DNA of 64,000 nucleotides from Virgibacillus sp. Lineage in GTDB: Bacteria > Bacillota > Bacilli > Bacillales > Amphibacillaceae. The notes below the pieces were generated by a model, which was not told the origin of the DNA, made no database searches, and was given only the letters and a program-made list of their open reading frames with translations. Where the stretch lies: the NCBI GenBank assembly GCA_041689365.1, contig JBDNGJ010000188.1, forward strand, positions 3,150 to 67,149. Direction: 5' to 3'. Positions 41,591 to 46,028 of the stretch are shown here, piece by piece. How positions within the stretch are numbered: position 1 is the stretch's first letter; every line of letters begins with the position of its first letter. Made by a program: the position numbers and the translations under genes.

Positions 41591-41620
41591 CTGGGACGAT
41601 GAACCTGTCCCCTTTGTCCC
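41591..41620 (+). repeat. REP-like hairpin copy 1 of 5 (CTGGGAC-N9-GTCCC..TGTCCC)
   Basis: CTGGGACGATGAACCTGTCCCCTTTGTCCC; other copies at 43634, 43918, 44207, 47624. Confidence 0.8.
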
Positions 41621-42376: not shown

Positions 42377-43591
42377 ATGAGTGATGATAAGGTGGGCAAA
42401 ACTTTACTGAAAGCCCTAGAAAGTATGCAGGCTCATGGAAGAGAGCGTGAATATAAAAGGCAAAAAGAAGTTTGGAAGAATATTGAGGCTCCATGCACAC
42501 TTACTGATGCATTAGTAAATTTAAAGAAGCATGAGCTGGATCAAATTCGTAAAAATCTCGATCTTAAAAATTTAAGTTCCTTGAAAAAGGGCGAACTAGC
42601 CAGAGAGTTAGTTCAGTTAATACCGTCACGGTTTGAGCATGTCTTATACATACTGGATAAAGAACGCTACGATATTATTAAGAAAGCTATAAATAACTCA
42701 GGGGCTTCCATTGTAGATAATACTTTTCCGTTCAGAAAGGTAGAGTCACTAAGAGACTATGGTATTTTATTTCCCGGTGTTCATAAGAATCAGTATGTTC
42801 TGTCCATGCCTTCGGAGTTGATAACTGTTTTTGACCAACTTGATGGAAATGAAATTCAAAATATTGTAGAGCGTAATACTGAATGGATACGCTTAACCCA
42901 AGGGCTGCTTTATTATTATGGTGTTATGGATTTATATGCTGTGATCGACAAGGTAGCAGAATTAACAGGACAAAAGGTAGCGGTATCAGAATTTATCAAT
43001 ATAATCTCCCATTCCCAATACTATTATCGTCAACTTACTTTCTCCAGTTTTGGGCTAAAGCATCAAAAAGTTTTAAATGCCGGAGAGATAATAACGGAAC
43101 AGGAAAAAAGACAAGATATAGATTATTATCCTTTTACTAAGAAACAGTTGATGGCTGCGGGGGAAATGGGATATATAGACAGATCCCAGGCTATGAACAG
43201 TTTCACTCAATTTCTTTTAGATTACTATGATTTACCAAATGATGAATTGAATGAAATTGCTATAAAGATTACAGATATGATTAAAGAAAATAAAAAGCCG
43301 GAGATGTTGATTAAGTTTTTAGAAAGTAAACTTGAGTTTCCTTCTGCTGCTTTTGTGAATCAGTTAATGCAGAAGTTAATGGAATTACATAACAACACTC
43401 CTATGTGGGTTTTAAAAGGCAATACACCTAATGTTTTATCTCCGGTTGAACATGAGCATTTAAAGTCTGAATCCTCAGGAAGTGACAAGGAGTCAAATGT
43501 GATCCCGATAACAAAGAATATCAAAGTTGGCCGTAATGAGCCATGTATATGTGGAAGTGGCAAAAAGTATAAAATATGCTGTGGAAAATAG
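42377..43591 (+). CDS. SEC-C motif (zinc-binding) domain protein
   Basis: C-terminal KVGRNEPCICGSGKKYKICCG. Confidence 0.85.
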   Translation: MSDDKVGKTLLKALESMQAHGREREYKRQKEVWKNIEAPCTLTDALVNLKKHELDQIRKNLDLKNLSSLKKGELARELVQLIPSRFEHVLYILDKERYDIIKKAINNSGASIVDNTFPFRKVESLRDYGILFPGVHKNQYVLSMPSELITVFDQLDGNEIQNIVERNTEWIRLTQGLLYYYGVMDLYAVIDKVAELTGQKVAVSEFINIISHSQYYYRQLTFSSFGLKHQKVLNAGEIITEQEKRQDIDYYPFTKKQLMAAGEMGYIDRSQAMNSFTQFLLDYYDLPNDELNEIAIKITDMIKENKKPEMLIKFLESKLEFPSAAFVNQLMQKLMELHNNTPMWVLKGNTPNVLSPVEHEHLKSESSGSDKESNVIPITKNIKVGRNEPCICGSGKKYKICCGK

Positions 43592-43633
43592 AAGAGACAT
43601 GTGGGAAGGGGATATACCCTTTCAAAATAACAT

Positions 43634-44625
43634 CTGGGACAAAGAGTGAACCTGTCCCTTTATTCCCCTTACCGTATCGCTTATAGCGGTACGCGATATG
43701 GACGACTCTGTCCTTCTGTAAAGCCTGATTGCGGGGCGGTCTGGATTCTTGAAAAAATAAGTTTGGTTTTAAAATTCCTCAAGAAAAGTGCTAGTTGACT
43801 TTTTTCATATGTATCATATCGCTGGGCGATATGATACAAAATCTCTTCGGAAAATTCATAATTTAATAGATATGGTAATCCGATATATACATGGTAGCTA
43901 AACCCGCAACTAACCATTTGGGACGGTGAACCTGTCCCTCTTGTCCCTCTTGTCCCTCATCGTATCGCTTATAGCGGCACCGCGCTATGGATGAGTTTAT
44001 CCCTTGTAAACCCCAGGTGCGGGAAGGTATGGACTATTGGACAAGAAGATCGGTTTTTAAAAAATGCCTCAATAAACATGTTAGTCGACTCTATTTATAT
44101 GTGTCGTATCGCTACCCGATATGAACATCAACTCTTCAAGAACCTCATAATTTAATAAGTAAGGGGTTCAGATATATAATCCGATGATACGCCCGGAACT
44201 AACCATCTGGGACGATGAACCTGTCCCTATTGTCCCTCCATATCGTTAGGCGATATACTTGCAAATTTTTCGAAAAACCTTCATATTTGATAGATAAGAA
44301 GATTCGGTATAATACATGATGTATACGTTAGAATAGTTGTTTATTATCTTCCAAAAGAGTAGTAGTTATAGTCCTTAATTGCTAGAAATCTTGGTTGAAT
44401 CAAAGGGCGACATATGATATATAGGGAGTTCAATATCTTCGTATCGCTTATAGCGGCACGCGATATGGACATAAAAAGTGTGAGTCGGAGTGGCTAAGTA
44501 TAACGTTAGTCTTTATTATATTCTTCAAAGTATTAGCCTGCCGTGTATGTGCTTCGTATCGCCAGGCGATATACCTTGTAATTTTATCGAAGAACTTCAT
44601 ATTCTACTAGAAAGGAGATCCGATA
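43634..44625. repeat. Iterated degenerate leader modules with TATCGC/GCGATA palindromes, separated by REP-like hairpins
   Basis: Alpha motif at 43675, 43963, 44442; beta motif at 43817, 44107, 44241, 44557; two 288-290-nt tandem units. Confidence 0.85.
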
Positions 44626-45329
44626 TGCGACATGATATACAGCCAAATGAACGATCTTTCACCACGAAGGAAGTAGCAGACGAATTGGAAATCGCAACAC
44701 CTACTGTTAGAAAGTATGGCCAAATTTTAGAGCGAAATGGATATGAGTTTTTTAAAGATGGTGACCGGCGTATTTTCGTTCGTTCTGACATTGAATCGCT
44801 TATAGCGATACGCGATACGGACAAGCCCATAGACGAAACAGCTACATACCTTGTAAATCAACAAAAATTAAGATTAGATGAATTCAATGAAACAGAGATA
44901 ACGATACCTGATTCACCTGGTAATTCACCCCAAGATCTCGGTCAATTAAAAGAATCTTTAATGTTTTTAGCTAATGAATTAGCAGCTACACGTGAAATGA
45001 ATGTTCAGCTGACAAATGATATGTCTCAACTTAAAACTACGGTTTCCCAGCTCCAGCAAGATCATCATGTTATAAGTTCTGGTATCGGAAACTCAGCACA
45101 AAGAACTGCAAGAATTGAGAAATTAACGGAACAACAAAATAATCACTATGAGACGTTGCTGCAACAGGAAAAAGAAAAAAGCGAATTCTTGCAAAAAGAA
45201 ATACAAAATATGCGGGACGAACAGAAAAAAGAATGGCGATTACAAAGTGATTTTAACAAACGTTTAGAAAAATCGATGAAAAAACCTGCAGGAAATTTGG
45301 GTAAGTTCTTGTCCTTGTTTCGTAAATAA
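44625..45329 (+). CDS. MerR-type wHTH + coiled-coil protein with amphipathic C-terminal tail (RacA/pSK1 Par/DUF3967-like architecture)
   Basis: RBS GAAAGGAG before ATG 44625; TTKEVADELEIATPTVRKY HTH; Q/E/K-rich coiled coil; tail LGKFLSLFRK. Confidence 0.7.
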   Translation: MRHDIQPNERSFTTKEVADELEIATPTVRKYGQILERNGYEFFKDGDRRIFVRSDIESLIAIRDTDKPIDETATYLVNQQKLRLDEFNETEITIPDSPGNSPQDLGQLKESLMFLANELAATREMNVQLTNDMSQLKTTVSQLQQDHHVISSGIGNSAQRTARIEKLTEQQNNHYETLLQQEKEKSEFLQKEIQNMRDEQKKEWRLQSDFNKRLEKSMKKPAGNLGKFLSLFRK

Positions 45330-45389
45330 GACCATCGCGATTGTCCCCTGTTGTTGCTGAAGGAGTAATAATAGTAAAGGAGTAGGAAA

Positions 45390-46028
45390 ATGGATCTTCT
45401 AGATAAATATTTTAATTTCAGAGAGACACTACTAAGATTGCACTCAAAAATATTAGATGAATGTGTTAATGCTGACGATTTTAATAAATCTGTTGAAATT
45501 TTGGACATAGTTAAAAATAATGAGGTCATACTAGAATCTCAATCGGAAGAAGAATTACTTTTAGATTTTAATGTTTATGAAAATTTAAGGAATGGTGAAA
45601 ATGCGATATTTGAATATATGAAAAAAGATATAGAGAATACCGAGCAAGAAAAATTACTACTAAATGCAATGAGTGAGTCAGAACATTCACTTTATAAGAT
45701 TATCGATATTCAAAGAGAAAAGTGCATAATTACTTTAGAAGATATGCTAAAAAATAAGGATCCTGTCAAGGTTGTAGATAGAGGCTTAAGTAATACTACA
45801 AATAAAAATATCCTTATTTATACAAGGTTGTTAGATTTAGGTGAGTTTAACATTACATCAGGAATGGGTTTTACTTTTTCTCTGGATCATAAAGATTATT
45901 TGATTAAAAGAAGTCGTAAGCTAATGAAAAAAGTTAAGCACGATAATTCTTCAGTCAGCAGGTTTATCGCTTTTTTCAAGCTTAATAGAACAGATGGATT
46001 GCCTATGGCTTCTGAGAGATTCAACTAG
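45390..46028 (+). CDS. Hypothetical protein (AT-rich gene)
   Basis: 212-aa ORF with RBS AAGGAG/AGGA; no motif recognised with confidence. Confidence 0.65.
   Translation: MDLLDKYFNFRETLLRLHSKILDECVNADDFNKSVEILDIVKNNEVILESQSEEELLLDFNVYENLRNGENAIFEYMKKDIENTEQEKLLLNAMSESEHSLYKIIDIQREKCIITLEDMLKNKDPVKVVDRGLSNTTNKNILIYTRLLDLGEFNITSGMGFTFSLDHKDYLIKRSRKLMKKVKHDNSSVSRFIAFFKLNRTDGLPMASERFN

Follow-up and report, generated by a model that had tools for sequence, protein, structure and literature searches.

A gene embedded in copies of its own leader

We analysed a 64,000-nucleotide (nt) stretch of DNA from Virgibacillus sp. (contig JBDNGJ010000188.1), hereafter the window, and within it a gene at 44625..45329 that encodes a predicted DNA-binding protein of 234 amino acids (aa). 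The gene call draws on the open reading frame (ORF), its homologues and structural models, and repeats fill approximately 1 kb 5' of the ORF. The genome in which we searched is a draft assembly of 4.2 Mb in 305 contigs with 38% G+C, and the parts of the array and of the gene given below lie on the + strand of the window. The ATG at 44625 is the start in 79 of 79 aligned homologues, which open with MRxDIQ. A longer, GTG-started ORF from 44490 was considered and is not supported.

The repeats are of two kinds, alpha and beta. Alpha lies at 43673..43703, 43961..43991 (a variant with an indel), 44440..44470 and, inside the coding sequence, 44792..44822. Beta (TATCGC-N3-GCGATA) is exact at 43817 and 44557 and carries one mismatch each at 44107 (TATCGCTACCCGATA) and 44241 (TATCGTTAGGCGATA). 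An earlier note on this DNA had reported these four copies of each as two palindrome types that share the half-site TATCGC. All eight sites are present where it placed them, and we describe them instead as two arrangements of one heptamer, GCGATAY, which is the element common to the sites: beta is an inverted heptamer pair with a 3-base spacing, and alpha is a direct heptamer pair, with an inverted copy ahead of the pair in Virgibacillus. The same note had pointed to two tandem units of 288-290 nt (their mutual identity is 75-78%), to a conserved tract after each beta and to a ribosome-binding site (RBS) and ATG in the last copy only. Alignment bore out all three points. Every beta runs into sequence that repeats the leader and opening codons of the gene at 70-78% identity (44241-44323 versus 44557-44639, 78% over 85 nt; 44098-44175 versus 44546-44626, 70%), and the RBS GAAAGGAG (44610..44617, read from the sequence) and the ATG are confined to the last leader copy.

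The left edge of the array is formed by a hairpin resembling a repetitive extragenic palindrome (REP), at 43636..43669 (GGGACAAAGAGTGAACCTGTCCC plus a TGTCCC-like tail). Next come alpha-1 at 43673..43703 (GTATCGC TTATA GCGGTAC GCGATAT, with one inverted and two direct heptamers), which is 93% identical over 28 nt to the copy in the coding sequence, and beta-1 at 43810..43838, which an inverted-repeat scan recognised as a perfect palindrome with 13-nt arms (TGTATCATATCGC tgg GCGATATGATACA). By alignment, 43852..43895 is a relic of the leader and start (CATAAT ... TCCGATATATACATGG) that lacks an RBS and an ATG, and its part 43852-43886 aligns to 44593-44626 at 77%. The repeat scan placed a second REP-like hairpin followed by three overlapping copies of the 9-nt repeat TCTTGTCCC at 43920..43958, and beta-2 with one mutated arm (GTATCGC tac CCGATAT) at 44105..44121; between them lies the degenerate alpha-2 (43961..43991, 65%, indel GCGGCACCGCGCTAT). 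The promoter and leader relic of unit 2 (TGAACA N18 CATAAT ... TCAGATATATAATCCGATGA) occupies 44122..44190 in the alignment, and a third REP-like hairpin was found by repeat scan at 44209..44238. Beta-3 (TATCGTTAGGCGATA) then opens an aligned copy of the full promoter, leader and start at 44241..44323 (TTGCAA ... CATATT ... TTCGGTATAATACATGATG). Alpha-3 (44440..44470), 97% in its repeat family, lies at -182 relative to the ATG; alpha is likewise found at about -200 in loci of Halalkalibacter and Halobacillus.

A predicted winged helix, a long helix and a conserved tail

The protein falls below the cut-off of all Pfam and NCBIfam models, and no curated family covers it. Weak helix-turn-helix signals (MerR, HTH_24, excisionase) and PHROG 3470 were the only ones obtained. 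The MerR hidden Markov model (HMM) gave E-values of 0.03-0.08, under its cut-off, which leaves the protein outside the MerR-family membership of Pfam. The PADLOC anti-phage profiles gave no match. DUF3967 (PF13152) was absent too from the homologues P0036, P0053 and P0089 (about 75% identical) and P0002 (91%).

AlphaFold2 modelled residues 11-64 as a strand, two helices, a wing and a further helix, which is the layout of a MerR-type winged helix (pLDDT, the predicted local distance difference test score, is 89.8 for the N-domain). Beyond it the model has a helix at 69-89, a disordered linker, a helix at 105-219 and a terminal helix at 224-233. Foldseek matched the N-domain to MerR-family DNA-binding domains, including HiNmlR and MtaN, to RacA in its DNA complex (5i44_G; template modelling (TM) score 0.78 on the target, root-mean-square deviation (rmsd) 1.4 Å, 67 columns), to BldC (6ama; TM 0.64-0.66) and to pSK1 Par on its centromere (8csh_A; TM 0.61, rmsd 3.1 Å, probability 0.91, E 0.16). 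Because all Foldseek E-values were 0.01 or worse, we take the modelled winged helix as a fold assignment that falls short of proof of homology.

The C-terminal part is predicted to be a 115-residue helix and has no sensor domain, unlike MerR transcription factors. These models agree with the MerR-type helix-turn-helix and the long coiled coil read from the sequence in the earlier note. Its likening of the protein to RacA and Par held for the overall architecture and for the fold of RacA, with a looser resemblance to the Par domain, and not for family membership by sequence, hhalign against the RacA domain 5i41_B giving a probability of 18% over 22 columns. The protein ends in GKFLSLFRK (family consensus GLFSIFRK), in which F232, R233 and K234 are invariant or nearly so. 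This tail is helical in the model and resembles the C-terminus of MinD from the same genome (GMFQKVKSFFGMRS).

A module conserved across Bacillaceae

We found 772 close homologues, typically 75% identical, in genera including Virgibacillus, Aquibacillus, Peribacillus, Metabacillus, Neobacillus, Cytobacillus, Fictibacillus, Halalkalibacter and Halobacillus; the gene is present in 5 of 24 other genomes of the genus. Mean column identity in the orthologous family is 87%. We compared 80 loci from about 25 genera with 6 kb of flanking sequence. They share no constant partner gene, since neighbours vary, although a few contexts recur, and yet they carry the same sites at the same positions, as the earlier note had suggested checking in other Bacillaceae. 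From 5' to 3', the module consists of a small hairpin with a T-run, beta at -69, TTGCAA N17 CATATT, the RBS, a run of heptamers across the start codon (CCGATAT GCGACGT GATATAC), alpha at +170 (in many loci followed by GCGATAC CCGATAC at +274), the stop codon and a second small hairpin with a T-run. Beta occupies -69 in most of the 80 loci and there abuts the putative -35. A second beta lies 3' of the stop codon in 36 of 79 loci, with flanks that match those of the first. From the family alignment we infer that TTGCAA N17 CATATT is the promoter. A generic terminator scan of the region returned nothing above chance.

The gene in the window follows this layout. Aligned to the family, beta-4 (GTATCGC cag GCGATAT, 44556..44572) would be an operator that adjoins the putative promoter TTGTAA N16 CATATT (44576..44603). 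The heptamer-like run across the start codon is CCGATAT GCGACAT GATATAC (44620..44640), and alpha-4 (44792..44822) spans codons 57-66, with GCGATAC GCGATAC at 44805-44818. The +274 site of the family alignment is degenerate here (ACGATAC CTGATTC, 44901..44914; consensus GCGATAC CCGATAC). Past the stop codon, at the position of the second beta of other loci, the inverted-repeat scan found a small palindrome (ACCATCGCGATTG, 45330..45345). As a separate observation, Cytobacillus citreus FJAT-49705 has three full-length copies of the gene (P0071, P0075 and P0083), two of which share a 97-kb contig.

Nucleotide-level selection on the sites

The sites that lie within the coding sequence are under nucleotide-level selection. 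Codons 59-64 read CTT ATA GCG nnn CGC GAT with almost no variation in the 79 homologues, apart from the spacer codon 62, which is free. The lowest synonymous entropy of the 59 conserved codons with at least three synonyms belongs to codons 61, 60 and 63. A second constrained stretch, codons 2-8, coincides with the heptamers over the start region. ATA, a rare isoleucine codon, is used almost invariably at I5, I60 and I94, each inside a heptamer; it is uncommon at the conserved I23, I34, I50 and I56, and its use is mixed at I92, which adjoins the +274 site.

The arms of the palindromes show 486 one-sided changes versus 46 compensatory ones. Because the changes are one-sided, we regard alpha and beta as DNA sites, and the alternative that the palindromes form RNA stems was rejected for lack of covariation. 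A further point against an RNA stem is that beta at the gene lies 5' of the putative promoter. A search of 43000-45800 against Rfam with E-values up to 1 gave no match.

The sites are confined to the locus

Scanning the whole genome showed that the sites are restricted to the gene's own locus, the outcome on which the earlier note's proposal had been made to depend. ATCGCTTATAGCG has four matches in the 4.2 Mb, and all four are in the array; exact beta occurs twice, both times in the array. GCGATA reaches 7.2 per kb in 43600-45400 compared with 0.37 per kb genome-wide, an enrichment of about 20-fold. When one mismatch was allowed, there were five composite sites at the locus and three elsewhere in the genome. 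The nine complete carrier genomes contain exact beta 1-4 times each, and all but two of these sites are at the gene's locus; the reversed pattern, used as the control, had no matches. Averaged over 81 loci, GCGATA has a background density of about 0.1 per 250 nt, which climbs to 1-2.2 in the interval from -250 to +1250. We therefore rejected a dispersed regulon or dispersed sites like ram or ricS, as composite sites are essentially locus-only. We also noted long tandem arrays with a 20/40-nt period on two contigs of the genome (C171:11030-11720 and C282:1600-2190). They are made of GTTGATATCGCGTGTTCACG GTTGATATCCTGTATTTCAA and its reverse complement and contain GCGATA, and they have no demonstrated link to the protein.

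The array derives from partial duplication of the gene

Small ORFs 3' of the gene in Peribacillus, Cytobacillus and Rossellomorea proved to be decayed copies of its first ~100 residues. Using tblastn, we detected partial copies in 24 of 81 loci, upstream or downstream of the gene and all in its orientation. Almost all of them extend over residues 1 to ~146, and the C-terminal third is hardly ever represented. At the DNA level the paralogous fragments span -120 to +450, with coverage that peaks at beta and alpha, and fragments that hold alpha only or beta only are common. The 3' end of the gene was never found upstream, so that circular permutation or a 3' remnant is not supported. Two loci (L019, of Virgibacillus necropolis, and L058) have a partial copy so near the intact gene that the first tblastn match exceeds 1 kb, and one locus (L031) has an extra partial copy 6.2 kb 3' of the gene.

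Arrays occur in five Virgibacillus species, with 2-5 units that each measure about 280 nt. Individual unit types have counterparts in other species, and the array is therefore older than the divergence of the species. In the window units, the recognisable remains are limited to the segment from beta through the leader to the start, and alpha; the coding and promoter parts have decayed, and alpha, beta and the start-region heptamers are kept. For this reason we did not retain the idea that the window units are decayed copies of the full gene, although N-terminal pseudo-copies are real in other genera, and the array of V. necropolis, unlike that of the window, includes recognisable coding remnants. 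On the aligned sequences, the Virgibacillus units are best described as a trimmed form of a partial tandem duplication of the gene's 5' part that is seen throughout the family. The earlier note was right that the upstream array consists of copies of the gene's own leader, and the correction is that it is one case of this wider process. Alpha, beta and the CCGATATATAAC tract are better conserved than the rest of the unit, both between orthologous units (92% versus 77%) and between paralogous ones (85% versus 61%). Either selection or conversion from the active copy has kept the sites.

The hairpins at 43636, 43920 and 44209 belong to a dispersed REP-like family (GGGAC..CCTGTCCC..TGTCCC) with 27 copies genome-wide. 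The hairpins said to close the units are thus real and are not specific to the module, and we rejected them as a module component in favour of a generic dispersed element that travelled along inside the unit during its amplification. In the arrays of relatives, some units have an intact hairpin and others a decayed one. The element reads GGGACnnGGnnCCTGTCCC with TGTCCC 3-5 nt further on, and its copies in the window start at 41593, 43636, 43920, 44209 and 47626 (+). These five copies are co-oriented within 6 kb of the window; elsewhere in the genome some form facing pairs (contigs C202 and C230).

Exchange between genera and chromosomal position

Genera are intermixed in the gene tree. At four-fold degenerate third positions, the gene is 68-87% identical between Virgibacillus, Metabacillus, Priestia, Peribacillus and Neobacillus, compared with 32-48%, a saturated level, for dnaA from the same genomes. 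The excess of third-position identity is uniform along the gene and therefore reflects recent common ancestry, not site constraint. Where sister loci lie in different contexts, homology ends near -93 and +710, and in loci with a common context identity is 87% over the module and 65-78% over the flanks. In Fictibacillus and Sutcliffiella, the divergence of the gene equals that of its flanks. We read these sequence comparisons as pointing to an old resident gene whose module of roughly 0.8 kb also passes between genera. In Virgibacillus genomes without the gene, the interval from dus to the downstream gene holds other DNA and has no clean empty-site boundary.

The gene is chromosomal in all 10 complete genomes, at a distance from dnaA of 152-728 kb, or 2.8-19.3% of genome length; these genomes are not independent, and they include at least six different immediate contexts. 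In 9 of the 10, the gene is on the same replichore as dnaA and co-oriented with it. Bona fide RacA orthologues accompany the gene in eight of the ten complete genomes. The Bacillaceae carriers outside Virgibacillus, such as Metabacillus, Priestia, Peribacillus, Neobacillus and Fictibacillus, have one such orthologue each, of 172-208 aa, and a search with the RacA DNA-binding domain (E ≤ 1e-3) found no RacA homologue in six Virgibacillus genomes (G000, G001, G005, G010, G012 and G041). The family is neither RacA nor a simple replacement for it, because RacA coexists with it in eight genomes and is absent from the tested Virgibacillus.

Two neighbours of the module differ between related genomes. 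Directly 5' of the array, 42377-43591 of the window encodes a 404-aa protein with a C-terminal SEC-C motif, which is reduced to fragments of 47-67 aa at the same place in two related genomes (L012 and L014). An ORF of 212 aa (45390-46028), which separates the gene from the conserved downstream gene, has no family match and is missing from the syntenic loci of the closest relatives.

Remote relatives and plasmid paralogues

A remote profile search in 1.84 billion representative sequences retrieved 337 relatives, with HMMER E-values of 1e-19 to 1e-6 for a set resembling DUF3967 and MerR proteins. One hit, the repetitive 1250-aa P0155, was treated as likely spurious. The distant relatives are 180-230 aa long with a layout identical to that of the protein, and several (e.g., P0153 and P0170) carry a C-terminal DUF3967. 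Alignment of the N-domains of the family and the remote relatives with hhalign gave a probability of 99.8% (E 4.5e-29, residues 1-81), and by this sequence evidence the two sets of N-domains are clearly homologous. Tails of distant relatives, such as KKKGFWQRLFG, NKSVWKKLFGG and KKGLLKRLFNL, resemble the membrane-targeting helix of MinD, and the tail of the family fits this pattern.

Plasmids of Bacillus, Priestia and Geobacillus encode distant paralogues annotated as MerR or DUF3967 that are 28-51% identical over parts of the protein. A close homologue was found on none of 72,556 plasmids, and the phage collection gave no match. On a 7.2-kb plasmid-like contig of the Virgibacillus genome (C138), a MobQ-type relaxase lies beside a winged-helix and coiled-coil paralogue (L010:1489-1977) of at least 163 aa, cut by the contig end, with 42% identity over residues 9-56. 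No heptamer repeats were found near this paralogue on the contig.

Interpretation and alternatives

We propose, as a reading to which we give an even chance, that the gene and its sites constitute a self-binding, autoregulated nucleoprotein module at an origin-proximal locus, possibly tethered to the membrane. The protein would be a dimeric or higher-order DNA binder composed of a MerR-type winged helix and a coiled coil. Its cognate sites would be GCGATAY heptamers, set as inverted pairs in beta; in alpha, the +274 site and the start-codon run they would form direct pairs, to which a third, inverted copy is added in some cases. It would bind cooperatively to the cluster of sites on and around its own gene and would repress its own promoter, a step that we infer from the position of beta right against the -35 and from the heptamers across the start codon. 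One large nucleoprotein complex would assemble at the origin-proximal locus, the trimmed tandem copies upstream would add sites to this platform, and membrane attachment may come from the conserved C-terminal helix, in the manner of pSK1 Par, RocS and RicO. A bolder version seems to us possible but rather unlikely: a one-gene chromosomal centromere or anchor cassette that bears its protein's sites in its own promoter, start codon and coding sequence, enlarges this platform by repeated duplication of its 5' half, spreads or is converted between genera, and tethers a single, always origin-proximal locus to the membrane through its MinD-like tail.

Several results weigh against a tethered, self-binding module. 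Sequence searches of the PDB with the full profile, the N-domain or the single sequence (E up to 10) did not find RacA or Par, and the profile of remote homologues likewise returned marginal MerR matches only, without RacA or Par. DUF3967 and DUF536 were undetected in the protein, so that the earlier note's suggested comparison with DUF3967 succeeded for the remote homologues, which carry the domain and share the N-domain, and not for the protein itself. That note had also called the tail amphipathic; a conserved terminal helix is predicted, and its hydrophobic moment is moderate and no better than that of shuffled sequences. The generic promoter scan did not call the conserved tract, and promoter-like matches in the region were at chance level. 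Origin proximity may partly stem from shared ancestry of the location. The site columns in the comparison of the five Virgibacillus arrays, in which none of 500 random blocks equalled the conservation of sites over spacers, were partly picked after the alignment had been viewed. Finally, unit 2 has degenerate sites, and the array may thus be partly in decay.

The decay of the copies raises the question of whether they do anything at all. The protein could be a plain autorepressor, with the array and the downstream pseudo-copies as neutral debris of unequal crossing-over between repeated sites. Broken frames and 34-89% identity in the decaying pseudo-copies, the mutated alpha and beta of unit 2, the units without RBS and ATG, and a copy number that varies among close species all fit such debris. 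However, the sites are far better kept than the spacers across species, and fragments with alpha or beta only outlast the sequence around them; moreover, a regulator of itself alone has no evident purpose, and simple repression needs neither a long coiled coil nor a conserved tail. We regard this explanation as unlikely. The signs of exchange invite another, in which a unit of ~0.8 kb moves or converts, the palindromes serve as crossover points and the protein acts as a bending or directionality factor. It would account for the four-fold identity of 0.68-0.87 against 0.32-0.48 for dnaA, uniform along the gene, for the mixture of genera in the tree, the limits of sister-locus homology near -93 and +710 and the module that is closer (87%) than its shared flanks (65-78%), as well as for the second beta past the stop in 36 of 79 loci and the several copies in some genomes. 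Yet no recombinase, transposase or integrase is linked to the gene and its neighbours vary, close homologues are absent from the plasmid and phage collections, the 3' end is never upstream, there is no sign of circular permutation and a clean empty site was not found. The 3-bp spacer is also too short for known tyrosine-recombinase cores, and we consider a mobile unit of this kind quite improbable.

The gene might instead be a domesticated plasmid partition gene of the pSK1 Par or DUF3967 type, stranded with centromere-like repeats and functionless or self-silencing. Homologous N-domains, the MerR and DUF3967 paralogues on Bacillus, Priestia and Geobacillus plasmids, and the paralogue beside a MobQ-type relaxase on a plasmid-like contig of the same genome are compatible with this origin. 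The family is, however, strongly conserved (87% mean column identity) and chromosomal in every complete genome examined, without adjoining plasmid genes, and its plasmid relatives are just 28-51% identical over parts of the protein; a stranded relic is in our view very doubtful. That the repeats act as RNA, either as small RNAs from the units ending at the REP hairpin or as alpha and beta stem-loops in the mRNA affecting stability or translation, is extremely improbable. A -10-like CATAAT is kept in the units, which have a hairpin at their end, and alpha lies within the mRNA, but the Rfam search was negative, the arms lack compensatory substitutions, the gene's beta is 5' of the -35, an element no longer present in the units, and the hairpin is a generic dispersed element without a strong T-run.

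If the nucleoprotein module exists as proposed, it would be of interest in several respects. Proteins in which an amphipathic tail is joined to a winged helix and a coiled coil, with RacA, RocS, RicO and pSK1 Par as examples, are emerging as a Firmicutes solution for attaching DNA to the membrane or the pole. The family would be a further branch of them, distinct, widespread and without annotation; it coexists with RacA and has the minimal layout of plasmid partition, yet lies in the chromosome, 3-19% of the genome from the origin. Synonymous positions are clearly under selection for what would be a protein-binding site within the binder's own gene, and a predicted binding platform has grown by partial self-duplication. 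Given how little the gene diverges at synonymous positions between genera, one may ask by what route and for what reason it is exchanged. With a small gene and short, specific predicted sites, the proposal can be tested directly in tractable Bacillaceae.

Comparison with known systems

The closest parallel in layout is Par of the Staphylococcus aureus plasmid pSK1 (8csh), a single-protein partition system that also has a central coiled coil and a short tail, behind a winged helix which the modelled N-domain resembles, and that likewise has direct and inverted repeats beside its own gene, as the predicted sites are here. A C-terminal stretch of pSK1 Par is described as nearly identical to the amphipathic helix of MinD and RocS (PMC11500499). 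The family differs in having no sequence similarity to Par and no DUF536, in being chromosomal, in having sites also within the coding sequence and 3' of the stop codon, and in gaining extra ones when part of the gene is duplicated.

RacA of Bacillus subtilis (5i41, 5i44) has the same DNA-binding fold, a coiled-coil C-domain and an origin-proximal action, so that fold and coiled coil are common to both, whereas the sequence does not place the family with RacA. RacA reads 7-bp half-sites in the ram site TGACGCC/GGCGTCA, and clustering enhances its binding (PMC4914108); it has no terminal amphipathic helix (bioRxiv 10.64898/2026.03.06.710092). The ram sites are GC-rich 14-bp palindromes dispersed around the origin, whereas the GCGATAY heptamers of the family are confined to one locus. 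The origin-membrane tethers RicO of S. aureus and RocS of Streptococcus pneumoniae, compared by their published architecture, are likewise made of a small helix-turn-helix, a coiled coil and a C-terminal helix, which in these two is amphipathic. RicO links DNA to the membrane by way of a specific motif that it recognises close to the origin (bioRxiv 10.64898/2026.03.06.710092; PMC11500499). Its nine sites extend over about 700 kb, whereas all the sites of the family are at the gene.

The plasmid proteins resembling DUF3967 (PF13152) and MerR share with the family a homologous N-domain, the length, the architecture and a basic and hydrophobic tail; the family differs in being sub-threshold for the DUF3967 model. 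DUF3967 proteins are themselves uncharacterised, and the name turned up in a single paper. BldC of Streptomyces (6ama) has a MerR-like DNA-binding domain, as the family does, and binds direct repeats head to tail, a precedent for recognition of direct as well as inverted heptamers by this fold; unlike the family, it has neither coiled coil nor tail and is a developmental regulator with many targets. A segregation-protein site within the protein's own coding sequence also has a precedent, parS in spo0J/parB, although ParB differs from the family in its fold and its CTP-dependent spreading, and parS occurs elsewhere too. The features that set the family apart from pSK1 Par, RacA, RocS and RicO are the confinement of its predicted sites to its own locus, with some of them inside the gene, the growth of these sites by partial self-duplication and the exchange of the module between genera.

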